A DNA stretch of 64,000 bases from Kiritimatiellia bacterium (GTDB taxonomy: Bacteria; Verrucomicrobiota; Kiritimatiellia; RFP12; UBA1067), in contig JBAYXX010000003.1 of the NCBI GenBank assembly GCA_041673345.1, forward strand, positions 23,604 to 87,603, given 5' to 3'. Every line of letters starts with the position of its first letter. Position 1 is the first letter of the stretch. The notes under the pieces were generated by a model. It was given only the letters and a program-made list of their open reading frames with translations. It was not told where the DNA came from and did not search any database. Positions 860-64,000 of the stretch are shown piece after piece. The translations under genes were made by a program, and so were the position numbers.

Positions 860-3800
860 ATGATATTTAAAAAAAATCAGAAACGCATGCTCTTTGTCCT
901 GCTGACAGCCTTTATCATCACCTACATCGGGGCTTACCTGTTTAAAACGCGACATGTTGATAAACAACGAATTGCATCGATTAACGAACACGTTGCGAAG
1001 AGTATACTATTGCTGCCTCCCCCTGCTCCGATCTCCGGAACTGTGCTCCAGCAAAAGGTTGTCTCGTCCGTAAAACAGCCCTTGACGCAGCCCACGCTGA
1101 CACAGGGGCAACTCGAACCGCTGCGGTCTGCCTTTAAAAACAGCAGAGATAAAATTAAGGGGCAGCTCCCCAAAAACAGAACGATTCTACTCTCCAAGCG
1201 CACGATTGAAGTTCCTGAAGAAAGGTCTTTACCCGCTGATTTCGCACTGGATCAGAGCCCAACCCAGCGCGATTCACTGCCCTATATTGTCCACTTCGGC
1301 CAGCCAATCACCGGCGCAATGCGCCAGGGACTGGAAAAAAATGGCGCTCTTTTGCGGGGCTACCTAGCCCACTACGCCTTCTTAACCGAGTTGTCGGCTG
1401 CGGCACTACGCGCTATTGCAAATAATCCAGATGTGCACTTTGTCACAGAATTTCTACCCAAGGATAAAATTCAGCCCTTTCTCAGCTCTCTGACCGCAAC
1501 CATACCTGGCAACGAAACTCTACAACTCTCGATCCAGACGCTTGATCCGCTGGATACTAAGTCGGTCGAGGAGCTGGTCGCCGCGCTCGGCGGTGAGGTC
1601 AATCACACCACCCGCTTGCCAGAGTGGGGGGTGATTCGCGCGACCCTGCCTTTGAGTGAGATTCCAGCACTGACACAGCGCGGTGAGGTCCAGTGGGTTG
1701 AGGAGTTTGTCCCACCCAAATTGCTCAATGATTATGCGACCCTGCCCTCGCACCTGAATGCGGTAGCGGTTCAGAACGAGTGGTACTTGACAGGTCAAGG
1801 GCAGATTATCGGCCATGCTGACACCGGAATCGATACGGGGAATGAGGCCACCATTCACCCTGATTTCCAGGGCCAGATCGCCGCCATTTTTGATCTGGCC
1901 AACAACGGCACTGATGCCGCCGATTATCACGGTCACGGCACTCACACCGCCGGCTCGATCTGCGGCAGCGGCGCCTCCAGCCAGGGGCAATACAAAGGTA
2001 TCGCCTATGATGCCAAGCTGATCGCACAGTGCATCGTGGATAAGACCACTGGACATTTTACCGGTATCTATGACCTTTATGCCATGTATATGCAAAGTTA
2101 TTTGAATGGGGCGACCATCCACTCCGATAGCTGGGGCTCAGCGGTTTATGGCGAGTACGACGGCTTTGCCAGGGAGACCGATCTCTTTGCATGGACCTAC
2201 CCCCGTTTTTTGCCGGTCTTTGCAGCCGGAAACTCAGGCATAGACAGCGATAACGACGGAATTGTTGATCCCGACAACATCACCTCGCCGGGTACCGCTA
2301 AAAATGTGCTGACAATAGGTGCCACCGAGAATGACCGCCCCTTTGCAAATGAAGGGTTTCGCGCTTATAAATACTCTCAGAAATGGGGAACAAGCTTTAA
2401 AACCAACCCCATCAAGGATGACTACATCTCGCGCAGTGCCACCACATTGCCCTACCAGCAGGGCATGGCCGCTTTTTCCAGTCGGGGGCCAACCGATGAC
2501 AATCGCATCAAACCCGAGGTGTGCGCGCCTGGCACTGACATTATCTCCACCCGCAGCTCCATGCCCGGCGCCAGCGCGCTATGGGGTGTGCTACCCGCCA
2601 ACTACGCTTACTGCTACAGTGGCGGAACCAGCATGGCAACCCCGCTCACAGCGGGCACTGCCGCCCTGATCCGGCAATATATGGTTCAGCGAGCCGGCAT
2701 TCCCCTTCCATCCGCCGCATTGATCAAGGCCACCATGATCGGCGGTTCGCACACACTGGCACCTGGTCAGTACGGAGTTACAGCGCAACAGGAGATCCCC
2801 TTCACATCCCCAAACATGATTGAAGGCTGGGGGCAGCCAGAACTCGTTCAAATGCTTCACCCGCAAGGACTAATGATTAGGCTAATCGACGGATTCTCCC
2901 CTACGACCGGCGGGACCAATCTCTATCAAGTCACGGTCGCGAAGCCCGGTTATCCGCTTGATATTGTGATGTCCTGGCTGGATTATCCGGGCACAGCTGG
3001 CGGGCCAGCCACGCTGGTCAACGACCTTAATCTGAACGTGGTCACTCCAGGTACCAACGTCCTATTCCCTAATAACCGCACAACCGATGACGACTGCAAC
3101 ACAGTTGAGAGCATCCGGATCAACGCTGCCGAGACTGGTGTTTATACCCTCAAAGTCATTGGTGCAAATATCGTGGTCAATAACGGTGCTGTCGCAATCT
3201 ATGTACGCGGCGCGCTGGACGAAACCCCGATCATTGTGCATGAGAGTACGCCGTACTATGATTCCACGCAGGCCCCTTATCCAATTGATTTCAAGGTGCA
3301 GAGCCTTAGCCCGTTGACCAATAATAGCGTGAACCTTTACTATAACACCGGCACGCCCAACTCTGTCACTGGTACGTGGCAGAGTGTGGCAGCCACCTGG
3401 AGCAGCAACGCCAACTACCAGGCAATGATCCCCCACCACCAGAAAAACACAACCCTGCGCTACTACATGCAAATTTCCAACGAGACCTTTAATGTCAGCC
3501 TGCCAAAACATGCGGTCATCAGCAATAACTTCTTCACCATGCACCTCGGCTCCCCGACCCTTCTGATCATTGACGGCAGTCCTGCGCAATATGGAACCGT
3601 GATACCGGAGTATGGCACCAACATCATCCTCTCCGGCCAGGTATTTACGGCCACCGCCGCGCCGCAAGCAATTACCACCCAGGAACGCATCGCTGCGGAT
3701 GGATGGAGCGGCACAGGTGACATTCCATCCGCAGCGGACACCAACTCTGTGACACTCTCCATTCAACAGGAGAGTGCGCTTACCTGGAACTGGCAGACCC

Positions 3801-6630: not shown

Positions 6631-8628
6631 TTAGAAGATGTATGATGCCGTGACCTTCCAGGTGCGCCCATCAGCCGGATAGTAATAGTAGTTGTGTCCA
6701 CCGGCCCAGTAGTAGCCGCCATAGTTGCAGTACTCCTTATCAAAGAGGTTGTCAACGCCCGCTGAAAGTTTAAATCCTTCTGCAAACTGCGGTTCATAGG
6801 CAACACCTAGGTCGAGCGTGGTGTAGGGTTTCAGCCTTTGAGCCGTGTTGGCAAAATCAGATTCCATGCGCTGCGACGAAATATGATTCACTGTGCCCAG
6901 CAGGCTGATCTCATCTGTAACACAGAGTCTGCCATTTAGGCGCAGCGAGTGCCTGGGAACCATCGGAAACTGATTTTCATCATACGGCCCTTCAGAAAAA
7001 TAGGCGTCAACATAGTTGTATAACAGCCCGATTGATCCCAGATCCTCCTTGTCCAAGGAGACCGAAGCTTCAATTCCTTCGCGAGTGGTATTATCAGGCG
7101 CATTCACATTCTGATAAGTCACTGAGTTGTAATAGATCTCGTCCTGACTCTTGATCTGGTAAAAGGTTATTGCCGTTGTCAGGTATTCAAACAGGGTCGC
7201 CGAACCACCAGCTTCAAGTGTATAGCCGGTCTCGGGCTTAAGAGCGGTATTGGGAACACCCCATGAAACCACCTCATCCACAAATGGGGCATGGTAATAG
7301 CTAGTTGCCTTGGCAAAGAGTTTAGCCTCTTCAATCGGACGATAAAGCAGAGCTGCTTCATAGGCCGCCTCAGTGTTATCGTATGAGGTTATTTTTGCCG
7401 CGCTCTTGACGCGGTTGTCGAAACGCTCTCCACGGGCTCCTGCCAGCAGTGAGATATCATCTGTGAAGAAAAATTCATCCATGATGTAACCAGCATAGGA
7501 TGCGCGGTTATACTCATCTTTACTGGTGTCGGATTTATACTGGTTGAAACGAAGGTCGGTCCCAAGCGTTAATTGGTTTTCATATTCGCCTATATCAAAA
7601 GTGTGGTTGTATTTTGGGGTGAATGCGTACTCGTCAACCGTATATTCGGTTCTGGATTTTAAAGAGATCCAGGAGGTCTCTGATTCGCGTCGGCTGGCTG
7701 TGAATGCACCATCCAGAATTCCTTCCTCTCCAAGATCGGTTTTCCCGTAAAGGCGTGTGCCCCATTGTTCAAGCTCAGAGCTGTCATTAGGAGTGGTCGA
7801 CAGCTTGGGGTTTTTGTTGAACTGTGCCCGTGTCAATGATCCAGGCAGTCCAAAGTCGCTATTATGGTAGAATGCGGAGAGAGATACCTGGCGTATTTCG
7901 TTCCAATGTTTCGTAACAGATCCATTGGCATTCCAGGTTTCATAGTCGCTGTTCTTGCGGTATCCATCTGATTTGTCCCAGCTCAATCCTCCGCTGTAAC
8001 TAACGCCCTCATCCAACACTCCGGCACGGTTGACACTAGCTCCGAATGTATTGTCAGAGCCTACCGTGGCCAATACGGCGGTACGTTCTTCTTCGCCGGG
8101 AGCCAGAGTAATGATATTGATTACCCCTGCAACAGCGTAGTCGCCAAACAAAACGGTTTGACTGCCATGCAGCACCTCAATGCGGGATATGCCGGCTAGT
8201 GGTACACGCAGGAGATTAGGTGCGGCCATATCAGGGTTGTTGAGCCTTTCGCCGTCAACCATGACCAGAATACGACCGTGTGAGTTGCCGCCATAGCCGC
8301 GCATGGATATCTGAGACTGAGCTGGATTGCTGCTTAAAGAGCGGATGAATATCCCGGCATCTTTGCGCAGAACATCAATGATGTCTTTACGACCTTTTTT
8401 ACGGATATCCTCAGCTGTGATAATTGTCACATGTGAGGCCATCTCCTCTTTTGTCTTAAAGGCGCGGCTTGCTTCTACAATAACCGGAGGCATATTGGTG
8501 TGAGCGGGTGTGGCTTCGTTTTGCTCCAGCACTTCAACTGCTGTTGCATTAAAAGCAGATATGATTGAGAGTGTGCATACAAGGCACGGCGCGAGTTGAA
8601 TTAACAGTTGCTTCATCTTCTTCCTCAA
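6631..8628 (-). CDS. btuB: TonB-dependent outer-membrane receptor, probably cobalamin-type (BtuB-like); symbol tentative
   Basis: Signal peptide. Plug-domain motifs (VTIITAEDIRK..., DGERLNNPD, RIEVLHGSQTVLFGDYAVAGVINIITL). 22-strand barrel length. Terminal aromatic (..SYIF). A B12-riboswitch-like leader lies upstream. Confidence 0.7.
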   Translation of the reverse strand: MRKKMKQLLIQLAPCLVCTLSIISAFNATAVEVLEQNEATPAHTNMPPVIVEASRAFKTKEEMASHVTIITAEDIRKKGRKDIIDVLRKDAGIFIRSLSSNPAQSQISMRGYGGNSHGRILVMVDGERLNNPDMAAPNLLRVPLAGISRIEVLHGSQTVLFGDYAVAGVINIITLAPGEEERTAVLATVGSDNTFGASVNRAGVLDEGVSYSGGLSWDKSDGYRKNSDYETWNANGSVTKHWNEIRQVSLSAFYHNSDFGLPGSLTRAQFNKNPKLSTTPNDSSELEQWGTRLYGKTDLGEEGILDGAFTASRRESETSWISLKSRTEYTVDEYAFTPKYNHTFDIGEYENQLTLGTDLRFNQYKSDTSKDEYNRASYAGYIMDEFFFTDDISLLAGARGERFDNRVKSAAKITSYDNTEAAYEAALLYRPIEEAKLFAKATSYYHAPFVDEVVSWGVPNTALKPETGYTLEAGGSATLFEYLTTAITFYQIKSQDEIYYNSVTYQNVNAPDNTTREGIEASVSLDKEDLGSIGLLYNYVDAYFSEGPYDENQFPMVPRHSLRLNGRLCVTDEISLLGTVNHISSQRMESDFANTAQRLKPYTTLDLGVAYEPQFAEGFKLSAGVDNLFDKEYCNYGGYYWAGGHNYYYYPADGRTWKVTASYIF

Positions 8629-8699
8629 GCGGGATCAGTTGTATAATCTGCGTCACAAGAGGAAAGAAGGTTTAGAACTCCCAATACCTCTTGCGCGAA

Positions 8700-8857
8700 G
8701 GCATTTAACAGATGCATCCAATCCGTCTTCTGACTTACAGCGTATCCTCACTCTAACCTTCTCATCTGATACAACAGACAATGGCACTAAAGAGCTTGTA
8801 GCTGATTACAGCGGCGCGACCGTACCCGAATCTCACGGGTTTCCGATAATTGGCACA
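8700..8857 (-). promoter_or_regulatory. Probable cobalamin (AdoCbl) riboswitch in the 5' leader of the TonB-dependent receptor gene; putative sigma70 promoter just upstream (TTGACA-17-TATCTT, minus strand ~8893-8865)
   Basis: Minus-strand leader reads ..GTGCCAATTATCGGAAACCCGTGAGATTCGGGTACGGTCGCGCCGCTGTAATCAGC...AGTGCCATTGTC...GAGAAGG. This matches the conserved GGTG-AAATCC-GG / GCCGCTGTAA core and a B12-box-like AGTGCCATTG. An SD (GAGGAAG) precedes the ATG. Not verified by covariance model. Confidence 0.45.
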
Positions 8858-10834: not shown

Positions 10835-10888
10835 GACCTGTAGCTCCGATTTCCAATCGGACATGTCCGGTTGGAAACCGGACCTACG
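10835..10888. repeat. REP-like double-hairpin palindromic element (module A), copy 1
   Basis: GTAG..TCCGATTTCCAATCGGAC-ATG-TCCGGTTGGAAACCGGACCTAC. Near-identical copies at 20571-20619, 37748-37795, 43903-43950 and 46376-46423. Confidence 0.8.
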
Positions 10889-11010
10889 TTAGATACAGCT
10901 CGACAGATAATCCCGCTTATGCGGCTGAATCGCAGCAATTTTGCAGATAACAGGAGTTTTGAACGCCCACAATTGAATTTAAGGGGAAGCAGTTTGTCCA
11001 TTCACACCAT

Positions 11011-20197: not shown

Positions 20198-20700
20198 CGA
20201 TGCTGGCCGACGATGACGGTGGACGATTGGGATCATGCGGGGGCTCGTCCACCAGCATCGTCGCCGTTATCTAAACCGGAGGCGCGGCTGACCAGAGTGC
20301 GTAATCTGATCATTCGCAAACCACCTTAGTCACCCGTATAGCGAAAGATTTCCTTATCTCACACCTTGTCTCACACCTTGTCTCACACCTTGTCAAGTCA
20401 GACTAAGTGCGAGACAAAATTCGCGACAAAGCTGGCCTATTGCCCAGGGTCGGGGTCGGGGTCGGGGTCGGTATCGGTATCGAAGGGTGCATAGAATCGA
20501 CCCCGATGCCGATTCCGACCCCGACTCCGAGTTGCGGGGCACCACATATTGACTGCGGAACCGACCTCTTGTAGGTCCGGTTTTCAACCGGACATGTCCG
20601 ATTGGAAATCGGACCTACGTCTGTCGTAAAGCACTATAGCCGCGGGCCGTGGCCGCGGTTGGCGCGTATACACGCTCCGAATAATGAATGCGGTCATGAC
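20198..20700. repeat. Composite repeat cluster (modules B/C, G, (GGGGTC)n/(GGTATC)n palindrome, A, H)
   Basis: 20350-20420 is an inverted copy of 16258-16325. 20440-20535 is a long imperfect palindrome of hexamer repeats. 20571-20619 is a module A double hairpin. 20628-20670 is a CCGCGG-rich palindrome also at 17905-17945 and 43960-44000. Confidence 0.8.
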
Positions 20701-37096: not shown

Positions 37097-37702
37097 ATGG
37101 GTGCGATGATTTCGTTTGTTGTTAAGACTTGGCTCAAAATATTATTTATCTTTACGCCGTTTCTTGTGCTCTCGATTTTTCTGGGGATTACGCGCGATTA
37201 CGATAGGAGTCGTCGTCGGGCGTTCGCTCTGCGTACTATCAGTGCCATAACAGTCATCTGCCTGGTGGTTTATTTTTTTGGCTCAATGATATTTTCGTTA
37301 TTCGGGATCACATTGGATGCCTTTCGGATCGGGGCGGGAGCACTGCTGTTTTTATCAGCGATTAATTTGGTGCAGGGCAATGTGCCTGTGACACCCAGCG
37401 GGGAGGAAGATCTGGCGGTGGTGCCTCTTGCCATGCCGATCACCGTAGGACCAGCGGTGATGGGCGTACTTTTTGTTATAGGCGCGGATGTCATCAGCTT
37501 TGAGCAGCGCATGGCCGGGGCTGTGGCGGTGGGTCTGGCAGTTGCCTCTATGAGCGGTCTGCTTTTGGTGGCGACGACGATTGAGAGGTTGGTGGGAAAA
37601 TCTCAGCTTACGATTCTTAGCAAAATCACCGGCTTGATTTTGGCGGCGTTGTCAGCGCAGATGATTGTCACTGGCATTAAAAATTTTTTGGTGGCGGAGT
37701 GA
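37097..37702 (+). CDS. MarC-family (UPF0056) integral membrane protein
   Basis: Six TM helices. MarC family pattern. GGAGGG SD 7 nt upstream of ATG 37097. Confidence 0.75.
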   Translation: MGAMISFVVKTWLKILFIFTPFLVLSIFLGITRDYDRSRRRAFALRTISAITVICLVVYFFGSMIFSLFGITLDAFRIGAGALLFLSAINLVQGNVPVTPSGEEDLAVVPLAMPITVGPAVMGVLFVIGADVISFEQRMAGAVAVGLAVASMSGLLLVATTIERLVGKSQLTILSKITGLILAALSAQMIVTGIKNFLVAE

Positions 37703-37704
37703 AG

Positions 37705-38300
37705 AAGCTCTAAAGTGAAAAGGTCGCGTCTCTGGCGCGGAAGCAACGTAGGTCCGGTTTTCAACCGGACATATCCGATTGGAAACCGGACCTACTGGAG
37801 TTTGGCTTCGCCTTCGGTTTACGATAACGGCGGCGATGCTGGTGAACGAGCCCCCGCATGACCCCAATCGTCCACCAACATCGCTTGCCACGCCGAACGA
37901 CTGGAAGGCGGGTCGTACAGCATCGTCAACCAGCATCGGGTGTAGTAGCCGCTCTATGAGCGGCATGTGTCGCTCATAGAGCGACTACTACACCAAACTC
38001 CTATAAACGTTCGATAGACAATTTTTTGCAAAGAACAACTAATTGTTTTTCTAGTCGCCTAAGCGACTAGGCTTGATCTGAGACTCTGCTCAAATCAAGT
38101 GGCTCCGCGTTGCGGAGCAACAGAAGTCAGAATTCAGGAGTCAGAGTTCACGCGGCTGCATCGCGAAAAAACGGTGGGTAACTGCGACAAAATGGCAGGA
38201 AAAAATGAAGATTGTGATTAAGATTGGGATTAGGATTGACCCACCGACAACATGTTTGTAAGGACCAACATGTTTGTCCTGCCCTTTGGTAAGGGCCTAG
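37705..38300. repeat. Composite repeat cluster (modules A, C, B, inverted module-D pair, module E, H-like, (GATTA)n)
   Basis: 37748-37795 is a module A double hairpin. 37939-37994 is a 56-bp module-D palindrome. 38005-38070 is the reverse complement of 19921-19990. ORF-track entry 37652..37966 is repeat translation. Confidence 0.8.
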
Positions 38301-43789: not shown

Positions 43790-44060
43790 CGGGTAGCAAC
43801 TCAAGGTTAGGGTTGAAGGTTAGGGTTGAAGGTTAAAGGATTAAAATGGTCGATCAGCGTCGTCGTCCGTTATCGTAAACCGACGGCGAAGCCGAACTCC
43901 AGTAGGTCCGGTTTCCAACCGGACATGTCCGATTGGAAATCGGACCTACGTTTTTGCGAAGCACTGTAGCCACGGGCCGTGACCGCGGTTAGCGCGTTTA
44001 TAGTCGCTTAGGCGCCTACTGCACTTTAGAACTCTAGAGCTTCCCCTTTCAACCATTTCA
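43790..44060. repeat. Composite repeat cluster ((GGTTAGGGTTGAA)x2, module C, module A, module H, partial module E)
   Basis: 43903-43950 is a module A double hairpin. 43800-43845 is a TTAGGG-containing 13-mer duplicated. Confidence 0.8.
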
Positions 44061-46107: not shown

Positions 46108-46470
46108 TATCCTAGTCGCTTAGGCGACTAGAAAAAGCAATTAATTGTTCTTTCCAACAAGTTGTCTGTTTGTGAAGTCGTTTAACTCTAATGTAGTAGT
46201 CGCTCTGTGAGCGACATATGCCGCTCATAGAGCGGCTTCGGCCGACGATGCTGTGCGACCCGCCTTCCAGTCGTTCGGCGTGGCGAGTGATGTTGGTGGA
46301 CGATTGGGATCATGCGGAGGCTCGTCAACCAGCATCGTCGCCGCTATCGTAAACCGACGGCGCGGTCGACTTTCAGTAGGTCCCGATGCATCGGGACATG
46401 TCCGGTTGGAAACCGGACCTACGTTGCTCCCGCGTCAGAGACGCGACCTTTTCACTTTAGAACTTCTTCT
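46108..46470. repeat. Composite repeat cluster (module E, module-D inverted pair, modules B/C, module A)
   Basis: Module E at 46109-46155. Module D at 46191-46236. Module A at 46376-46423. ORF-track entry 46253..46543 is repeat translation. Confidence 0.8.
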
Positions 46471-52436: not shown

Positions 52437-52784
52437 TTAGCTGGCAGGCGGGTTCTCCTTGTTGCTTCGGTAATAAATCGCATCGCGATATCGGTGCATC
52501 TGGTTGATTGCATCGTTAGGCGGTGAATCGACACCTTCTCTATCCGCCTCAAGCCGATATTTAGCATCAAAAAGATAGGTGAGTTTAAACGTATTGTCAC
52601 CCCCGACAGGCTTGGTCAACCTTAACACGATATCAGGCTTCTGTTCGCCGCCGGTGGGCGCAACGATTTCGCCGTCACACTCGTCCAGTACGCCGGTTGT
52701 CGCATTATAAAAAAGCTCGGCCAGTTCTGAATTGTAATATGAAATGCGACAACACATTGGACAAAAAAATGTCCCATGCAACAA
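52437..52784 (-). pseudogene. Orphan fragment of a PD-(D/E)xK restriction-endonuclease-like protein (McrC-like C-terminal piece)
   Basis: ..PDIVLRLTKP...LFDAKYRLEADREG...AINQMHRYRDAI resembles the nuclease core (D..D/EAK) of McrC-type proteins. 115 aa only. Confidence 0.3.
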
Positions 52785-52874: not shown

Positions 52875-52990
52875 CCACAAAGGACCTAGCGCAGCATAGC
52901 CGCCTGTCTTGCAACACACAGGCAGGCAACTAATTTTTTATCTCTCACAGAGGCACAGAGTTCTCAGAGTTGTTTTGCCCGCGAATCTCC
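52875..52990. repeat. Partial copy of the element inserted in copA (includes the 23-bp TIR TTATCTCTCACAGAGGCACAGAG)
   Basis: CCTAGCGCAGCATAGCCGC...TTATCTCTCACAGAGGCACAGAGTTCTCAGAGTTGTTT matches 57141-57235. Confidence 0.75.
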
Positions 52991-55059: not shown

Positions 55060-57728
55060 TTAGAACTGCCAGCGCAGACCGCCGCCACAACCAAAATCGG
55101 AGTGCCATTGGCCGATCAGGGAAAAGTGTTTGGTAAGCAAATAGCCGGTGCCCGCGCGGATCTCCCAATGTTCTTTCGTATCATATTCGGCCTCAGAAAA
55201 CACCGCGAGTCGCGGCGTGAGTTCAAGGTGCTTACCGACGGCGAATTGGAACTCACCGGCTGTGTCCACCCACACGCGTGATGTGATATTGAGCGGCAGT
55301 AGATAGCGCAGGCCGAAGATACCCTCGTGCTTGTCGAAGTGATCGTCCGCTCCCTCAAGGTCAAGCCCTGCGAAGAGAGTGGTAAAACGGTTCAGGTAAT
55401 AATCGTAGGTGGGCGCGACCTCCCACTCTACGTCATCCACGTGCTGCCAGCCAGCCTGCCATTCGGTAGAGAAGATGTGCCGCGAGTTGGCGTAAACCAA
55501 CACTCCCTGCGACATCTGCGAAAGCGCATCCACCCGACCATACAGGTAGAACGGGTCATCGTAGAGTAGTGGACGCACGGCGGCGGTGGCTGGGTCGGGG
55601 ACGAACCCCTGATAATGCACCACCGCCGCCATGCCGCTCATCATGTGATAGAGCAGGTGGCAGTGGAAAAACCAGTCGCCGAACTCATCCGCCGCAAACT
55701 CAATCACAGTAGTCGTCATGGGGGCGACATCCACGGTGTGTTTGAGCGGTGAATGATCTCCCTGGGCGTTGAGCACCCGGAAGAAATGGCCGTGAAGATG
55801 CATCGGGTGATGCATCATGGTGCGGTTGATCATGATGAACCGCACCACCTCGCCGCGTTTGATTTCAATGTCGTCACGCTCGGACAACGGCTTGTTGTTC
55901 AGAAACCAGAGGTAACGCTCCATGTCGCCATCGAGGGTGAGCCGGATTTTTCGGATCGGTTTTGAAGAATCGAATGCGGTGGATTGCAGGGCGCGTAGCT
56001 TGTCGTAAGGCGGCCCTGGACGTTCCTCGCTCATGTTGTCAGCGGCCAGCGGGGTTTGAGAACTCACATCCTCAGCGAGTAGTCCGAGCCAGGTGCTATT
56101 GGGTGCAGTGGTTTTCCCTTCGGAAACCATACCCGTACCCATCGGCGCCTTTTCGTGCATCATACCGCTCATGTCGTGGCCCGCGTGTTCCATCGCGGGT
56201 GCGGCGTCCATCCCTGAATAGTTCGTTTTAGCGGCATTCGGAGCCATCTCGCCGTGATCCATTCCCTTCATTCCTTCCATCTCCTGCATGCCGTCCATAC
56301 TCTCCATTCCCTCCATACTGTTCATGCCCGGTTGATCGAACTTGCCGGCACGTACAGCGTTGCCCGACATACCCATCGAACCGCCTGGGGTCAGTGCGAA
56401 CACGCGTTTGAGCGAGAGGCCGCCCATGCTGTCGTAAAGATTGGGGGACGGAATGTCCGGCGCGGCGTGCCGTGTTCCGTCACCAATCCACAGCGACGCA
56501 TGCCCTGATCCATCATGAGCTGTTGCGCGAAACTCGTAGCTGCCTTCATCCGGCATTGTAACGATCACGTCATAGGTCTCAGCCACGCCCATCAGCAACC
56601 GCTCTTCGTTGAAGGGATGCACCAGTTGTCCGTCCGCCGAGATCACCTGCATCGGGCCGCCGGCAAACTGCAAATAGAAGAACGTGGAGGCCGAACCATC
56701 GATGACCCGGAGCCGGATCTTTTCGCCCGGCTTAGCGGTGAGGGCGTGGTGCGGTGCGCCGTTGAGCAGAAAGCGATCATAGTACACATCGGACAGATCC
56801 ATGGGTGGCATGCGTTGAAGCTCCCTTGAGAAATACGCGCCCAACAGTCCCAGCCGCGCTGCACCCAGCACGCTTTGACCGCTGCCTTTCTTAATTGAAT
56901 ACCACTCGCTGCCACGTTTGAGGGTGTGGAGCACCGAGTTCGGGTCGTCATCTGTCCAATCGGATAGCACCACGACGTGGTCACGCAGCTGGTCAAACAC
57001 GCCCTTATCCTTCGGCGCGATGACCAATGCTCCGAACAGTCCGCGCTGTTCCTGGAGCATGGTGTGGCTGTGATACCAGTAGGTACCGGATTGACGCAGA
57101 TCAAACTCATAGGTGAATGTCGTACCAGGTGCAATGGGTGGATATGTCCTAGCGCAGCATAGCCGCAACCAATTCTTTATCTCTCACAGAGGCACAGAGT
57201 TCTCTGAGTTGTTTCAGAGTTTCCACCAGCAAAGACTCAAAGGCGTAAAGTTCGGGCTCGACGTTCCCAGTTTTCCACATTTTTCACCTCTAAGATTTTT
57301 CACCTTAAAATATTCTCTCAGTGCTGCGAAAAGTTCAGCTACTCTCTGTGTTCTCTGTGCCTCTGTGAGAGATAATAAACGTACAAAAAAAACAAGAATA
57401 TGAATGATAGTAGTACAAAGGGCACGCTGTCCATGTTGTTGGGCAGCAGAATTCCATGCCAGTGAATCGAGGTCTCCACGTCCACCTGGTTATGGACGCG
57501 GATTGTTGCATGGTCGCCGTCGGTGAAACGCAGGGTCGGCCCCGGTAGTTGACCATTGAGGGTCATGGCCTGGACAGGATGGCCGGTGATGTTTATCTCC
57601 TGCCGGGCAATGGTGAGGTCATATTCCACGGTTGCCGCCGATAAGATCGCCCACGGCACGAACAGCGCCAAGGTGCCCAACAGCACCGCCATGGGATTCA
57701 CAGACCATGTTTTGGTTGGTCGCATCAT
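55060..57728 (-). pseudogene. copA: Multicopper oxidase (CopA/PcoA-like) fused to a CopB/PcoB-like outer-membrane domain, disrupted by a ~290-bp repeat/MITE insertion
   Basis: All four MCO copper motifs (HWHG at 57440s, WYHSH, HPMHLHGH, HCHLLYHMMSGM). Met/His-rich MxxM repeats. About 180-aa C-terminal extension ending ..RWQF. Coding sequence is interrupted between HWHGILLPNNMD (about 57429) and YPPIAPG (about 57135). Insert length is not a multiple of 3. Confidence 0.6.
57177..57375. mobile_element. ~199-bp MITE with perfect 23-bp terminal inverted repeats (TTATCTCTCACAGAGGCACAGAG) inserted in copA
   Basis: Left TIR 57177-57199. Right TIR 57353-57375 (reverse complement). No transposase ORF. 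Left-end copy at about 52935-52975. Confidence 0.7.
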
Positions 57729-57773: not shown

Positions 57774-58448
57774 TTACGGTGAGAAGATCGCGTTTGTGCT
57801 CCCTGATTGCAGCATCGGCTGCCGGTTTTCAAAACCGGGGCGGCCGCTGCGGTAGATGATACCGATCGGAATGGAGTCGCCCCATTGGAACGACAACGCC
57901 AGCGCCTTCATACGGTCATACGGGTCATGCTCCGCTGTCACCGGCTGAACGCGCTTTTTGTACCACTTGTAGGTGTTGACCTTGTTGAAGGTTACGCATG
58001 GTTGCAGGATGTCCACGAGGACGAATCCCTCAGTGTGCCGCAAAGCTTCCAGCAGGGTCGCTTTGAGATGCTCCGGATCGCCGGCAAAGGTTCGCGCCAC
58101 AAGGGAACAGCCCTCAACAATCGCCAGTGCCAGCGGATTGAACGGCATCGACATCACGCCATGCGTTTGAATCTTGGTCACAATAACCTCAAGCTCGTGA
58201 TTGGCGCATTTGATGCCGGTGGCAACCGGCAGTGCGCGGCCGTGCAATCCATTAAAGAGATTGCAGGGCGGTGTCACATAGTGGGGGAGCTTGGCTGCCT
58301 GGCCGATACCGGAGACCAGTACGGTTTTGTCCGGATTCAGACCGCTTTCCGCCAGTGCGGCGTCGAATGCTTTGAGAATCGGAAAGTTGCCGCATCCCGG
58401 ACACCAGGCTGGAGTCGTATCGGCTTTTCGTAAATCCAGTGGTTTCAT
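57774..58448 (-). CDS. korB: 2-oxoacid:ferredoxin oxidoreductase beta subunit homologue with about 45-aa in-frame deletion removing the TPP-binding GDG...NN.IYGLTKGQ segment (probably non-functional)
   Basis: WCPGCGNF, GIGQAAKLP, LHGRALPVATGIK and PFNPLALA..LVARTF align to KorB. LEVIVT is joined directly to KIQTHGVMSMPFNP. 224 aa versus about 270-340 aa expected. Confidence 0.6.
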   Translation of the reverse strand: MKPLDLRKADTTPAWCPGCGNFPILKAFDAALAESGLNPDKTVLVSGIGQAAKLPHYVTPPCNLFNGLHGRALPVATGIKCANHELEVIVTKIQTHGVMSMPFNPLALAIVEGCSLVARTFAGDPEHLKATLLEALRHTEGFVLVDILQPCVTFNKVNTYKWYKKRVQPVTAEHDPYDRMKALALSFQWGDSIPIGIIYRSGRPGFENRQPMLQSGSTNAIFSP

Positions 58449-60151
58449 TATAATCCAATCCTTTCCGCAATCTCTGTTCCGGTGAATGGCAGTCCATCAT
58501 AGCGCAGGATGTTTTCAGCTTGTGTCAGCACTCCGGTTTCCCGAAGCAATGCGGCAAACTGGGCGGTCTGATTGCCTTCAACGCAGTAAATCCGGTGTCG
58601 TCCTTTCAAGTGGGGCTTCCACGCTGAGGGCGACAGCGGCCACACCTGAGCCGCATGCAGCATAGCTGCCGACCGACCGGCATTGTTCAAGGCATCGACC
58701 CCTTCACGCATCGGTCCGTAGCTGGAACCCCAGCAGATGATAAGAATCTCCGCACCGTCAGGCCCATGGTAGGCTGGAGGCAGGGCTTCGGCCTGCATCT
58801 CCGGCAGCTTTGCCATGCGTTTGTCCTGTTGTGAAATCCGCGCTTGAAAATCCTCGGACAAATGTCCAGCGGCATCATGTTCGTCCGAATCCACGACCAC
58901 CCGCGCCTTGCCACCTGGAATGGCCCGGGGAGAGACACCGCCCTCAGCAGGAATTCGATAGCGCTGGTAGTCCGCGTCGGCATCCTCTGCAATGCAGCGG
59001 TCAATCGGCGCATCTTTTTCAGGGAACGGCTGCACTAGCTTCTCCATATCCTGCAGATACTGATCTGTGAGCAGCAACGTGGGTGTCTGATAGCGATGAG
59101 CCGTCTGCAGGGCCGTGCGCATCAATGTGTAGCATTGCTCAACTGTTCCGGGAGTATAGATCGCCCGCGGGAATTCGCCGTGACCTGCCCGCAATGCAAA
59201 TTGCAAATCCTGCTGCCCTGTCCGTGTCGGCATGCCGGTTGCCGGTCCGGGACGCTGGGCTATAACAACAACCGCCGGTAGTTCCATCATTCCTGCCAAC
59301 GACAGCCCCTCGGCCATGAGTGCGAAACCGCCGCCGCTGGTGGTTGTCAGCGCGGGCACACCGGCATAGGTGGCGCCGCAGACCATATTTATGGCGGCAA
59401 TCTCGTCTTCGGCCTGTTCAACTAGAATGCCATGGAGGTCGGCCTTTTCCGCCAGCCAGGCAAGAGTCGCCGTGCTGGGGTTCATCGGATAGGCTGCCAC
59501 AAACTTCACCCCGGCCGTGGCCGCTCCCTGTCCCAGTGCCGCCGCCCCGCTCCAGAGTTGGCCGGCGGTAACGTGGTCGGAGAGTGCCGGTGCTTGCAGA
59601 CGCGCCCACGCTCCGAACTCGCCAATGCGGGTGTGTCCGGCCCGGGCGCATTTCATATTGACATCGGCCAGCTCCTTGTCTTTCGGAGAGAATAATTTTT
59701 CAAGATAGAGGCACAGGCTGTCAACCGGGTATCCCAGCAACGCGAAGACCGCGCCGGCCAGCACACTGTTTGCCGCCAGGGTTGAACCGGTTAACTCACG
59801 GGCCAGCTTTGTGGCATTCAGCGCTACGATCTCGGTGGTCTCTGTCGCTTCGCCATTGTGCAGATGAGTTCCGCCGGGTGCTATGCTTGGGGATAGAATT
59901 TCACCGGCAACATCCGAAAACGAAATCAGGAGGTCAGCCTGCTCCTTACCTGCAAAACACTCCTGGTCGCTTACTCGTAGGTCATACCAGTTCAACCCGC
60001 CGCGGATGCGTGACATGTAACTTCGAGTGGACAATAAATGTACACCCGTGTCTTTCATTCCACCAAGAAGAAAACTTCCCGCTGTCTCGACTCCCTGGCC
60101 GGCCTCGCCAACAATCCGTATAAGTATATCCGCCATAGTCATTCCTTCCAA
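58448..60151 (-). CDS. korA: 2-oxoacid:ferredoxin oxidoreductase alpha subunit
   Basis: ILIRIVGEAGQGVETAGSFLL.. is the KorA N-terminus, followed by pyruvate-flavodoxin oxidoreductase domains I-III. True start likely MADIL (about 60136). Confidence 0.85.
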   Translation of the reverse strand: MEGMTMADILIRIVGEAGQGVETAGSFLLGGMKDTGVHLLSTRSYMSRIRGGLNWYDLRVSDQECFAGKEQADLLISFSDVAGEILSPSIAPGGTHLHNGEATETTEIVALNATKLARELTGSTLAANSVLAGAVFALLGYPVDSLCLYLEKLFSPKDKELADVNMKCARAGHTRIGEFGAWARLQAPALSDHVTAGQLWSGAAALGQGAATAGVKFVAAYPMNPSTATLAWLAEKADLHGILVEQAEDEIAAINMVCGATYAGVPALTTTSGGGFALMAEGLSLAGMMELPAVVVIAQRPGPATGMPTRTGQQDLQFALRAGHGEFPRAIYTPGTVEQCYTLMRTALQTAHRYQTPTLLLTDQYLQDMEKLVQPFPEKDAPIDRCIAEDADADYQRYRIPAEGGVSPRAIPGGKARVVVDSDEHDAAGHLSEDFQARISQQDKRMAKLPEMQAEALPPAYHGPDGAEILIICWGSSYGPMREGVDALNNAGRSAAMLHAAQVWPLSPSAWKPHLKGRHRIYCVEGNQTAQFAALLRETGVLTQAENILRYDGLPFTGTEIAERIGL

Positions 60152-60316
60152 ACTTTGCAGACAGCTTTGTCCGCTGCTCGCTATTCATCGCCAGCTTAGT
60201 GCCTTGCAAGAGTTGTCTGTTTGATCTTTACGGGTTAAGCTGAGCCTAAAAATTGATCGCACCATTTTGTAACGCTTTCGATACAGGACAGTTTGTTATG
60301 GCGGTCTTGATTTCAT

Positions 60317-61048
60317 TCAAGCATTTGATAAAGATGACGTTAGAAAATCAGACAACTGCAAAAGTTGGGTCAAATTAGGCTTATTAACAACACGGTTACA
60401 AACAACAGACCACCCGTCGGACGATATATGAAACACAGTTGTTATCGGCCCTTTTTTTTGATTAAGAGGGAACTGGTTTATAAACTTAAGTAGAGTTTTT
60501 TGCACCTCTGGAGATATTGTTATACCTTTGTTATGATCTTTCGCTGTTATACTAAACTGATCTGTAAAATCCTTTATGAGCCCCTCTGTTATTTCCATGC
60601 CGGTGTCAGATTGCATAGATGCTTGCATCGTCAAGAAGTGCTCTGCTATTTTAGGAAGTTTTTTTCTGATTTTTATCTCTCTATTAATTTCAAGATTAAT
60701 ATTTTCGAAAAGCATAGTGTAATATTTATGCGTCGTTGATCGATTGGCTCCTGCATAGCCTCTTGTTTTTCTATGCACGTCACACAAATATCCGCTTCCT
60801 CCATTTTTATTCTGTTTACCTATTATTTTTATGATCTCATCACTTGAGTTAGACTGATTCTGAGATAATTTATATTTATTCGCTTTTCTCAAAACATCTT
60901 CTTGTGTGATTTTCCGGTACCCACAATGTTCTAATCCTTCAAATAACTGTCGTACTCTCAGTTTGTCCAAGATATAAAACTTAAACAGAATACCACCACC
61001 ACCTGCAATAAGCGTAGCAAATAAAAATAAACCTATCATTTCAGTCAT
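60317..61048 (-). CDS. Low-GC orphan gene: hypothetical protein with single N-terminal TM helix and about 215-aa soluble domain of unknown function
   Basis: GC is markedly lower than flanking genes. AAA/AAT-rich codon usage. N-terminal MTEMIGLFLFATLIAGGGGILFKFYIL. No recognisable motif. Confidence 0.5.
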   Translation of the reverse strand: MTEMIGLFLFATLIAGGGGILFKFYILDKLRVRQLFEGLEHCGYRKITQEDVLRKANKYKLSQNQSNSSDEIIKIIGKQNKNGGSGYLCDVHRKTRGYAGANRSTTHKYYTMLFENINLEINREIKIRKKLPKIAEHFLTMQASMQSDTGMEITEGLIKDFTDQFSITAKDHNKGITISPEVQKTLLKFINQFPLNQKKGPITTVFHISSDGWSVVCNRVVNKPNLTQLLQLSDFLTSSLSNA

Positions 61049-61089
61049 TTCTTTAGGTCACCGGCTTCAGCGCCATCAAGCATTTTAAT

Positions 61090-61500
61090 CAATCTTGCTT
61101 CGAGTGCTTCGCATACAAGCACCCACTGTCTTTCAACCAATGCCCAGTCGTGTGGTTATTCAATGGTGCGTTCGGCCAGTTCGGCAATCCATTGCATTTG
61201 TTCGCAGAGGGTCTGGCGCCAGCTCTGGCTAGTTATCAGAGGGGCGGTTGCGTACAACCTCGTCGGCGCGTGTAGCCTTCATCCAGGCGCGCTGCGAGAG
61301 CAACATGGCGAATACAACAGCCCCAAGTAGCCGATTACGCCCTGATGCGCACCCTGCACGTCTTTATTATGGAGCACCTCTTTCAGTGCCTCATACTCAC
61401 TGGTGATAAGCTCACTGATGTCCTCCTTGCTTGCGTGCGCAGCCTCGTTGAGCAACGAAAGGGCCTCGTGTATTTTCTGTGTCTCTTGTCCATCTTGTTT
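61090..61500 (-). pseudogene. Frameshifted remnant of an unidentified gene (possibly DinB/YfiT-like)
   Basis: Manual translation: ..HEALSLLNEAAHASKEDISELITSEYEALKEVLHNKDVQGAHQGVIGYLGLL continues in another frame as ..AVVFAMLLSQRAWMKATRADEVVRNRPSDN. Not in ORF track. Confidence 0.25.
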
Positions 61501-61572
61501 TTTATTTTACTTATCCTGATATTAATTTTAGTTTCTGGTGGTATAGGTTTCTCTCCTTTTCCGCCCGTTTTC

Positions 61573-61749
61573 TCAAAGCGGCGGCCTACGACCGCATAGT
61601 GCGCTAACGACCAGCGAAATGAGTAAGACGATCACAAAAATGAAAAAAAGGATCTTTGCCATCCCTGCGGCTGCGCCAGCTACACTGGTGAAACCCAGTA
61701 TACCTGCAACGACCGCGACAATCAATAACATGATAGTCCAGTACAACAT
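61573..61749 (-). CDS. UPF0391/DUF1328 small membrane protein (58 aa), absent from ORF track (<60 aa)
   Basis: [48 protein letters not shown].. matches the YtjA/DUF1328 pattern. Strong SD AAGGAGGAG 5 nt upstream. Confidence 0.6.
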
Positions 61750-61849
61750 AATAACTCCTCCTTATAGTTTTTCTTCAATTCTATCCCCGATATCAGTGTA
61801 ACTTTAACATGCGAGTTGTAGGATGGCAACATTGATTACCGCCGCGTTT

Positions 61850-64000
61850 TCATTTTTTCACCTTCAGGAGTTCTGCCAACGCCTTCACATCGCTCGTGGG
61901 GAGTTGACACACAAAGTTCTCGCACACGTAGGCTGTTGCCCGATTGTTCTTTGGCGCGATCTCCTTTATGAAATCGACATGTTTGGCGAAAAAAGCCTGC
62001 CCCGTGCCGCCATCGGTCAGAATGGTGATTGTGTTGGGCGTGAACCTGGAGTGGATTTCGCGAAGCAGCTCCTGTGTATCGGGTGCATCCAATGTGCCGG
62101 CGATGATGATTTGTTTCGGGGTCGCACGCAGCCAGTCCAGCGCAACGAGCATCAAAGGCATTGCAAAAGGCGTATTTGCGAGTTGCTGACCGACTGCGTG
62201 TAAAGTCTTTTCGGCGCGCACGTGCCAATCTGCTCGATCAAGCATCTGCGCCAGACGCAACAAGTTAAGCACCGCGACCGAGTTCGGCGACGGCTCAGCA
62301 CCGTCGTAGCTTTCCTTGGACCTTAGCAGGATATGTGCATCCTTGCCGCTGGTGGCAAAATAGCCGCCGTCGGCACTATCCCAGAACAGCTCATCCTGTC
62401 GCGCCTGGATTTCCATAGCCCATTCGATCCACTTCGGATCGAAGGTGGTTTCATAAAGATCAAGCAGTCCTTGAATCAAGAACGCATAATCCTCCGCAAA
62501 CCCCTCCACGGCACTCGCGCCCTCGCGATAGGTGCGCAACAGCGTCCGGTCCTGCTCGCGATACAGTTCTGCGCGTACAAATCTGGCTGCGCGCGTCGCG
62601 GCATCGCGGTAGCGGATATCGCCCAGCACCTGTGCAGCCCGAGCGAAGGCTGAGATCATGAGGCCGTTCCACGCGGTGATGATCTTGTCGTCACGATGCG
62701 GTCGCGGTCGTTTTCTACGCACCTTGGCGAGCAGTACACAGTCTGTGTCCAGCGCTGCCGCTGCCACTTTTTCGGCTAGGCCGAATTGGTTCGCCGTCTC
62801 GGCGATGGTGTGGCGTTGGATGAGGATGTTCTTGCCTTCAAACTCTTCTTGAGGATCGCTGCCAGGTGGCGCATTGCCTCTCGTCTCAATGCCGAAGCGG
62901 TAGTTGAACTGCGCCGTGCGCTCCGGGCCGAGTACACGCGCAATCTCGTCGGCCGTCCAGAGATAGAACGCGCCCTCGGCGTGTTCGGGTTTGCCGTGCG
63001 CAAGCGGGCTGTCCGCATCCTCCGCTGAGTAGAATCCACCCGTCGGATGGGTCATATCGCGCAGGACGTAGTCGAGAGTGTCGCGTGCGGTCTGTTTGTA
63101 CTGCGGCTCGTGGGTGATCTGGAATGCCGTGAGGTAAGCTGAGGCGAGTTGCGCTTGGTCGTAGAGCATCTTCTCGAAATGCGGCACATGCCAGAATCGG
63201 TCTACAGCATAGCGGTGGAAACCACCCCCAAGCTGGTCACGGATACCACCTGCGGTCATACGGTGCAAGGTGAAGAGTGCCATTTCCAGCGCCTTCTGAC
63301 CGTCTTTGGAGTTCGGATTACCCGCATAGAAGCGATAGAGAAAGTCAAAGATGACCGGGCGCGGAAACTTGGGTGCCGACCCGAACCCGCCGAGTTGGTC
63401 GTCGAAGGATGCGGCGATCTGCTCGAACGCCTTTTTAGGGATGCCGGTTTTGATCTCATTTTTGGGATCACCACTTGGCTGGGCGACCTTTCGTAACGAT
63501 TCGACGATGCGATCCGAGCTCGCGGTGATTTCCGCTTGCTCGGTCTTCCAGACATCGCTGATCTTGTTGGCCAGCGTCGCGAGCTGTTGCGGCGGAAAGT
63601 AGGTTCCCCCGAAGAACGGCTTAAGATCCGGCGTGAGCCACACCGTCATCGGCCATCCGCCACCGCCAGTGGTTGCTTGCACAAAGGTCATATAGACGCG
63701 ATCCACGTCGGGCCGTTCCTCGCGATCCACCTTGACGCAGACGAAATGCTGGTTGAGAATTTTTGCGACCTCCGGGTTTTCGAACGACTCGCGAGCCATG
63801 ACGTGGCACCAATGGCAGGTGGAGTAGCCGATGGAGAGATAAATCGGCTTGTTCAGTTTGCGTGCTTCGGCAAACGCTTCCTCGCCCCAGGGGTACCAGT
63901 CAACCGGATTGTGCGCATGCTGGAACAGGTAGGGGCTCTTCTCGTGAATCAGGCGGTTTGTGTGCATAGTCTCGTTTTCCGTAATCGTTGGCTTGTCCGC
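61850..64000 (-). CDS. Thioredoxin-domain-containing protein, DUF255/YyaL family (N-acylglucosamine-epimerase-like C-terminal domain), 5' end beyond window
   Basis: [15 protein letters not shown] thioredoxin-like motif and a long alpha/alpha-toroid C-terminal region. Frame remains open past 63967 (..[16 protein letters not shown]). Confidence 0.8.

Follow-up and report, generated by a model that had tools for sequence, protein, structure and literature searches.

TtfA, the trehalose monomycolate transport factor A (MSMEG_0736/Rv0383c), carries a transmembrane helix at residues 2-24, followed by a C-terminal domain that has been located in the cytoplasm by experiment; the protein has no known catalytic activity, works with the MmpL3 transporter, and has homologues reported only in mycolate producers (PMC6593404). 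A review describes the soluble domain of TtfA as lacking a lipid-binding pocket and the protein as thought to act via protein contacts with MmpL3, and the crystal-structure paper cited there calls the fold 'atypical' in its title (PMC7458404). Here we compare with this system a gene from an uncultured Kiritimatiellia bacterium, open reading frame (ORF) 60317-61048, which lies next to korA on the minus strand of a 64,000-nt stretch of DNA (contig JBAYXX010000003.1, positions 23,604 to 87,603; hereafter the window) and whose product we refer to as P0001. An initial annotation, made from the sequence without database searches, had described it as a low-GC orphan gene for a membrane-anchored protein in a decayed neighbourhood and had suggested that it encodes a phage-defence, abortive-infection (Abi) or toxin effector. 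Our analysis supports the horizontal acquisition of the gene and assigns its product to a very rare, unnamed family. The reading that we favour is that a foreign but intact gene of this family encodes an N-out/C-in, non-catalytic and membrane-tethered adaptor, and is transcribed by read-through; we would give this combined statement an even chance, its descriptive half being solid and its functional half weak.

Results

The GC content of ORF 60317-61048 is 0.348 (0.40, 0.34 and 0.31 at the first, second and third codon positions, respectively), compared with 0.58 for korA, 0.57 for korB, 0.575 for a DUF255/thioredoxin-like gene and 0.574 for a multicopper oxidase gene in its neighbourhood. When GC content was profiled in sliding segments of 732 nt, the minimum of the whole 64 kb (0.346; mean 0.518, standard deviation (SD) 0.044) fell exactly on this ORF, about 3.9 SD below the mean. 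Likewise, its GC content at third codon positions (GC3, 0.307) is about 4 SD lower than that of the 48 non-overlapping window ORFs, each of at least 150 aa, that served as the reference set (mean 0.584, SD 0.068). Since the ORF marks the window-wide GC minimum and its GC3 is so far below the reference, the compositional anomaly is real and far beyond chance, which bears out the first impression of a conspicuously AT-rich gene. At a resolution of 60 nt, the AT-rich block (approximately 60220-61060) ends abruptly at the start codon. Other low-GC patches in the window, at 9.2, 17.4, 21.8, 52.7 and 54.2 kb, lie mainly between real genes and include no comparable foreign gene, and a search of the 64 kb for a second copy of the family found none. 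The GC content of the ORF is low at each of the three codon positions, most markedly at the synonymous one, which indicates a recent, un-ameliorated import from an AT-rich donor.

The gene was also not found at related loci. Upstream of the closest relative of korA (75% aa identity; locus L016, from a Lentisphaerae metagenome-assembled genome (MAG)) lies a different, decayed sequence with no AT-rich gene, none of 80 korA loci contains a family member, and the gene is not present in 16 kb read at a Kiritimatiellae locus, L096, around an intact counterpart of the unit that precedes it in the window. Horizontal acquisition of ORF 60317-61048 is supported by its composition, and the GC3 deviation together with the absence from relatives' loci backs the earlier description of a compositionally foreign single gene next to korA. 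The initial annotation had counted conserved homologues of similar composition in relatives as evidence against such an origin: stably syntenic homologues of host composition do occur in three other lineages, but none was found in relatives of this genome.

P0001 has no match in Pfam, NCBIfam, PADLOC or PHROGs, in keeping with the statement that it has no recognisable domain, and the 18-19 family members likewise gave only scattered chance matches. With the single sequence as query, a word-indexed search of 5.8 billion proteins retrieved nothing but P0001, and the profile added two members that were already known. An exhaustive HMMER scan of 1.84 billion cluster representatives identified 17 further representatives of the family, 4 of them with E<1e-30. 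They are 22-45% identical to P0001, collinear with it along the whole length and alike in architecture; most are 219-258 aa long, and three shorter ones (136-173 aa) look like fragments. The gene is hence not a strict orphan, as had been proposed, although it does belong to an extremely rare and unnamed family: each of the 90% clusters has just 1-5 members among ~15 billion sequences. Homologues occur in Omnitrophota and other uncultured lineages, a Candidatus Omnitrophota MAG being the sole other named host. The structure prediction that had been recommended for P0001 gave a confident AlphaFold2 (AF2) model from a shallow alignment (predicted local distance difference test score (pLDDT) 90.7, predicted template modelling score (pTM) 0.86), and the AF2 model of P0013, a 25% identical member, has the same order of helices and strands (pLDDT 88.5). 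Given these homologues and confident models with a common element order, we consider the family genuine and not the product of a spurious ORF. Comparison of the P0001 model with the Protein Data Bank (PDB) using Foldseek returned a sole notable match, 6t84, which is mycobacterial TtfA (E 2.3e-3, probability 1.00), while the same comparison with the viral BFVD collection returned nothing.

P0001 contains one hydrophobic segment (residues 4-26) and no other, which agrees with the transmembrane-anchored 243-aa product noted initially; in the AF2 model the corresponding helix spans residues 2-40. Family members have 2-4 residues before the transmembrane segment, and these are acidic (M-[ST]-E-D in the closest members). 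Family-wide, the N-terminal side of the helix carries 0-1 positive charges and the 15 residues after it hold 3-5 Lys/Arg in most members. The positive-inside rule is well established, and because its pattern is found in nearly all members we place the domain in the cytoplasm: P0001 is predicted to adopt an N-out/C-in topology, with an alpha/beta domain of ~200 residues at the cytoplasmic face. The motifs Y-x-C-D, G-L-x-x-D-F-x-x-x-F, F-P-[FL]-N and G-W recur in the family. In the alignment of 18-19 sequences none of the columns is invariant, and the residues that come close (F161, F165 and Y87) are all aromatic. A catalytic triad of Cys89, Asp90 and His207 was considered and rejected: the three residues are invariant in the closest five sequences, but each is substituted in several of the distant ones. 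With no polar residue kept throughout the family, the domain is most likely non-enzymatic and is interpreted as having a binding or scaffold role. By analogy with TtfA, P0001 most likely functions as a membrane-tethered binding or adaptor module, the cytoplasmic domain of which would recruit or organise a partner at the inner membrane face without catalysis.

The features of the locus are listed in Table 1. The foreign gene appears to have landed between korA and a native stress-type unit, made up of DUF1328, a DUF883/ElaB-like gene and a gene for a 128-aa membrane protein; this unit was destroyed by two deletions and loss of a start codon, and its 5' region is the probable origin of read-through transcripts that cover the foreign gene.

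Table 1. Features of the korA locus in the window and positions of repeats shared with locus L096
Feature	Coordinates	Strand	Basis
Low-GC block, putative foreign segment: coding sequence and ~100 nt of 3' flank	60220..61060	.	60-nt GC profile, window-wide minimum
Intact coding sequence, 243 aa (P0001; NCBI 'hypothetical protein WC340_01225, Kiritimatiellia bacterium')	60317..61048	-	ORF, HMMER family, AF2
Single N-terminal transmembrane helix, residues ~4-26, with an acidic N-terminus of 3 residues before it and a K/R-rich stretch after it	60971..61039	-	Hydropathy, flanking charges
Predicted cytoplasmic alpha/beta domain, residues ~41-243	60320..60928	-	Alignments, AF2 secondary structure
Stretch of ~200 nt with host-like GC (~0.5) between remnant and foreign gene	61049..61249	-	GC and frame analysis
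Pseudogene remnant: DUF883/ElaB-like (N-terminal ~45 codons) fused to pieces of the gene for the 128-aa membrane protein	61250..61520	-	P0028, L096 blastn
AT-rich native 5' region of the destroyed DUF883 unit	61505..61572	-	L096 alignment up to 61520
Intact gene for a DUF1328 small membrane protein, 58 aa, upstream neighbour	61573..61749	-	Pfam PF07043, E 3e-12
korA-type 2-oxoacid:ferredoxin oxidoreductase subunit gene (POR and POR_N), downstream neighbour, appears intact	58448..60151	-	Pfam; relatives 40-75% identical over full length
korB, in-frame 51-aa deletion removing the thiamine-diphosphate-binding GDG...NN segment	57774..58448	-	tblastn, Pfam
Repeats resembling repetitive extragenic palindromic (REP) elements	window 10837-10890, 20555-20620, 37695-37814, 43885-43952, 46394-46456; L096 7630-7757

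The frameshifted gene remnant that the initial annotation had seen upstream of the foreign gene, at 61090-61500, is real and one deletion does shift its frame, but its extent is 61250-61520, and it can now be named. The best homologue, P0028, is a 111-aa Kiritimatiellae protein with an ElaB/YqjD-like glycine-zipper anchor (PF19029, DUF883_C), and the identity amounts to 66% over the N-terminal half in BLASTP and 67% over the first ~45 codons in tblastn. The conceptual translation of the remnant has no direct match in Pfam, its DUF883 identity being confirmed only through P0028. In L096, the DUF883 gene is followed by the gene for the 128-aa membrane protein, which has only sub-threshold Pfam matches, and this intact unit is followed by sulfur-transporter genes. 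Using blastn, positions 61520-61370 of the window aligned with 7986-8137 of L096 (88.8%), 61360-61317 with 8473-8516, and 61328-61250 with 8641-8719. Two internal deletions, which correspond to ~335 nt and ~124 nt of the L096 unit, have thus affected the remnant, one of them changing the reading frame, and comparison by eye indicates that the ATG was lost by deletion of one G (L096 GTAAAATGAAAAAAC versus GTAAAAT-AAAAAAC in the window). An interpretation of the remnant as a single frame with two nonsense codons was rejected, as the comparison with L096 identifies it as two genes joined by deletions. Two further independent metagenome assemblies from different samples (L001 and L002) show 100% identity to the locus sequence, and since the lesions are the same in three independent assemblies, they are not assembly errors.

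The segment at 61500-61560, which had been grouped with the foreign gene, is indeed AT-rich, but alignment with L096 identifies it as native 5' region of the destroyed DUF883 unit; the region upstream of the L096 DUF883 gene is similarly AT-rich. This 5' region is a possible source of transcription into the foreign gene. A promoter and terminator scan upstream of the foreign gene returned nothing convincing, and an Rfam scan of 59800-62000 detected no RNA family. The stretch between remnant and foreign gene (61049-61249) contains a codon-periodic frame with an in-frame TAA, the terminal TGA of which overlaps the ATG of the foreign gene (ATGA); no similarity of this stretch to L096 or to any other locus was found, nor any match in Pfam or Rfam.

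Damage extends to the other side of the foreign gene. When korB was compared with seven relatives by tblastn, a gap of 51-58 residues after residue 89/90 was found in each comparison, and the product has only a partial Pfam match to TPP_enzyme_C. Because the GDG...NN segment is present in all seven relatives compared and deleted here, the korB enzyme is probably inactive. The multicopper oxidase gene is split into 57339-57728 (-) and 55060-57168 (-) by a low-GC element of ~250 nt (57150-57400, GC 0.43), so that the DUF883 unit, korB and the multicopper oxidase gene are all damaged and the neighbourhood is decayed, as initially described. The element has a 23-nt internal inverted repeat (57177-57199 / 57353-57375) and a related copy at 52885-52975, both termini of the independent contig L001 lie within it, and it looks like a genomic repeat of the miniature inverted-repeat transposable element type. 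In L016, korA (1658-3196, 512 aa) lacks ~55 residues of the window korA, between '...QQDKRM' and '...HA(A/S)QVWPLSP', and the sequence upstream contains fragments that, by eye, resemble a phosphoketolase C-terminus and an N6-methylase motif; based on this gap and these fragments, decay around the kor operon seems to be recurrent in the lineage. Short intergenic repeats (~50-130 nt, 79-96% identical) that resemble REP-like elements are common to the window and L096 (Table 1).

A run of damaged genes of this kind, with the DUF883 unit in pieces, korB deprived of its thiamine-diphosphate motif and the multicopper oxidase gene split by a repeat, raises the question of whether the foreign gene is itself a neutral or decaying passenger, one that came in with foreign DNA, is expressed hardly or not at all, and owes its intactness solely to its recent arrival. 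Its composition, which has not been ameliorated, and the lack of a recognisable promoter or strong ribosome-binding site directly upstream would fit such a passenger. We nevertheless regard this explanation as unlikely, since the ORF is full-length, retains all family motifs and equals the nearest homologue in length, three independent assemblies of different samples carry an identical gene, and the ATGA junction with the upstream frame suggests that translation is coupled to that of a transcribed region.

The genomic contexts of ten family proteins were read at ~15 loci, with neighbours judged from precomputed Pfam calls and ORF reading and not scanned against PADLOC. P0005 is encoded after a MoxR-DUF58-transglutaminase operon, and P0020 between folD and metF, inside an Omnitrophota cluster that runs from formate-tetrahydrofolate ligase to carbon monoxide dehydrogenase/acetyl-CoA synthase. 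The genes for P0004 and for the family member at L103 are divergent from MlaEF/ComEA, with a helix-turn-helix-EIIA regulator gene next. P0003 lies between DoxX and an aminoacyl-tRNA synthetase, P0018 after a response regulator, P0006 ahead of an unknown gene plus a MacB-type ABC transporter, and P0007 behind an AAA+ ATPase, a protein with eCIS_core (PF13699) and an unknown protein of 659 aa. P0008 and P0010 come from a very AT-rich genome in which small unknown genes abound. The immediate neighbours of homologues yielded no significant Pfam domain, and an all-versus-all BLASTP of these neighbours revealed no partner gene common to lineages, similarity being found only within the pair L011/L101. 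Local gene order is kept in three pairs of loci, L007/L103, L011/L101 and L012/L013. GC content is host-like for three of the more distant members, P0007 (L010, 0.487/0.519), P0010 (L011, 0.249/0.268) and P0018 (L014, 0.548/0.553), and for P0004 (L007, 0.317/0.307). At L012 and L013 the family gene is ~6 GC points below its flanks, and the gene for the closest homologue of P0001, P0002, is an AT island too, with a GC content of 0.34 compared with 0.475 for the rest of the contig and 0.53-0.57 for the neighbouring gene.

Several of these loci showed additional features. Upstream of the P0002 gene (L003 1-300, L004 1-260) are tandem units of ~70 nt, each with a hairpin-like CGCCTTCGGCTTCGCCTCGGCG; both contigs, L003 and L004, terminate within the array, and the window does not contain the motif. 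At the Omnitrophota-like loci L012 (9969-10655) and L013 (9965-10651), the family gene is tightly packed between folD and metF in the Wood-Ljungdahl cluster and has a GC content of 0.39, compared with 0.455 for the flanks. The very AT-rich contigs L011 (GC ~0.27) and L101 have flanking genes for 194/208-aa, 77-aa and 90-aa proteins in common, the 77-aa gene overlapping the start of the family gene; they also carry PTH2, AMMECR1-Memo and RlaP, most of their other genes have no Pfam match, and the lineage could be of the episymbiont type (DPANN or candidate phyla radiation-like).

These contexts bear directly on the proposal that the gene is a stand-alone, membrane-anchored anti-phage, Abi or toxin effector acquired as a single-gene module. 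Foreign composition, the single-gene format, the membrane anchor, extreme rarity and patchy distribution all speak for such an effector, as does the position of the distant homologue P0007 behind AAA+ ATPase and eCIS_core genes. In addition, a 115-aa fragment at 52437-52784 (-), ~8 kb from the foreign gene, matches PF04411, a family of PD-(D/E)XK nucleases (E 5e-16; positions 55-144 of the 164 in the profile), and is apparently a decayed, truncated restriction-type nuclease. However, PADLOC-DB 2.0 returned no family for P0001 at E<=10 and none for any of the 19 members at E<=1, and no recognisable defence-system gene or defence island was seen at the ~15 homologue loci, where a search for the gene in phage-defence islands had been advised. 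Homologues lie inside housekeeping operons instead, namely the folD/metF Wood-Ljungdahl cluster and the position after the MoxR-DUF58-transglutaminase operon; the family has no match in phage, plasmid and IMG/VR collections, and the proteins have one transmembrane helix only and no conserved catalytic or pore-forming feature. The window itself is mostly housekeeping at 44-55 kb (lactonase, GDPD, M42 peptidase, glycosyltransferase and QueH) and is not a defence island there. Considering these data, the initial proposal of a defence, Abi or toxin effector is not supported, and we judge it improbable.

Small size, a non-enzymatic nature, rarity, AT-richness, mobility and variable context are typical traits of immunity genes. 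P0001 is small, non-enzymatic by prediction, rare, AT-rich, horizontally mobile and variable in context, and might be viewed as an orphan from a polymorphic-toxin or extracellular contractile injection system (eCIS), in which it would have served as immunity or accessory protein before it became detached from its toxin. The P0007 gene, immediately downstream of the eCIS_core and AAA+ genes and the gene for the 659-aa protein, would suit this view, but it is the only homologue context read that has such neighbours, the window contains no toxin-like neighbour, and no match to a Pfam immunity family was found, which makes the explanation very improbable. Scarcely credible, finally, is a native, vertically inherited gene with low GC due to its own amino-acid or expression constraints: even though family members tend to exceed their flanks somewhat in AT content, also at syntenic loci (L012, GC 0.39 versus 0.455; L008, 0.38 versus 0.43), a GC3 of 0.31 versus 0.58 is not an amino-acid effect, GC3 being the synonymous position, and the gene is absent from the available relatives and occupies the site of a deleted native operon.

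Discussion

The reading of ORF 60317-61048 as a foreign gene for a membrane-tethered adaptor that is transcribed by read-through has to be set against several observations that count against one or another of its parts. As regards the mechanism of insertion, the sequence on both sides of the gene was searched for direct or inverted repeats and for target-site duplications, with only short matches at chance level, and no integrase or transposase was found among the neighbouring ORFs (no tRNA scan was run). As regards the donor, the nearest homologue is only 45% identical. As regards the source of transcription, no strong sigma-70-like site was found in 61505-61572. A further such point is the spacer of ~200 nt with normal GC content that ends in the ATGA overlap at the start codon. 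The adaptor role itself is a prediction from sequence and model, and none of the neighbour genes compared above is shared in a way that would hint at a partner. Finally, the structural match to 6t84 is borderline, with a template modelling score of 0.51 normalised to TtfA, a root-mean-square deviation of 7.3 and 11% identity. TtfA was not recovered with the model of a second family member (best match E 0.19), and a search of all PDB sequences with the family profile at E<=10 did not list 6t84 and gave only spurious matches of calmodulin level at E>0.1. We considered filing the family under TtfA and decided against it because the second model did not replicate the match.

Should the weak resemblance to TtfA be confirmed, the family would comprise the first relatives of this functionally obscure fold outside mycolate-producing bacteria. 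A bolder proposal is that the family is a new, horizontally mobile one that represents either an uncatalogued stand-alone, membrane-triggered defence or toxin module or a membrane-tethered transport accessory that would be the first of TtfA-like kind beyond the mycolata; we consider it decidedly unlikely. If the latter were true, the 'atypical' TtfA fold would be an ancient and widespread adaptor for membrane transporters. At the level of the locus, we are dealing with an ordinary gene-gain event, in which one foreign gene entered a decaying part of the genome of an uncultured Kiritimatiellia bacterium, and at the same time with a clean example of gene gain that coincides with native loss, as reflected by the DUF883 unit, the korB cofactor motif and the repeat-split multicopper oxidase gene. 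At the level of the protein, P0001 defines a family of well-folding proteins for which Pfam, NCBIfam, PHROGs and PADLOC have no entry. Of 1.84 billion cluster representatives at 50% identity, 18 belong to it, and no solved structure matches it robustly.

Compared with the known single-gene anti-phage and Abi proteins in PADLOC-DB, the gene is alike in being a small accessory gene of foreign composition for a membrane protein, whereas its family matches no model, has no defence-island context and sits inside housekeeping operons elsewhere. The remnant next to it resembles the DUF883/ElaB-YqjD-YgaM family in its N-terminal half, which is homologous to P0028, and differs in that the C-terminal anchor is deleted, the start is lost and the rest is fused to fragments of the next gene; with anchor and start codon gone, it is a pseudogene derived from this family and not a functional member. 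TtfA differs from the P0001 family in that the two have no detectable sequence similarity, either in the PDB profile search or through a Pfam or NCBIfam match. Furthermore, TtfA is essential, vertically inherited, confined to mycolate producers and equipped with a disordered C-terminal tail, whereas the P0001 gene is accessory, appears foreign to its Kiritimatiellia genome and encodes no such tail, and the hosts of its family are Kiritimatiellia, Omnitrophota and uncultured lineages, not mycolate producers (the window was not searched for MmpL genes). What the two proteins have in common is their architecture, an N-terminal transmembrane helix followed by an alpha/beta domain of ~180-200 residues, and the side of the membrane on which this C-terminal domain resides, which is cytoplasmic by experiment in TtfA and by prediction in P0001.

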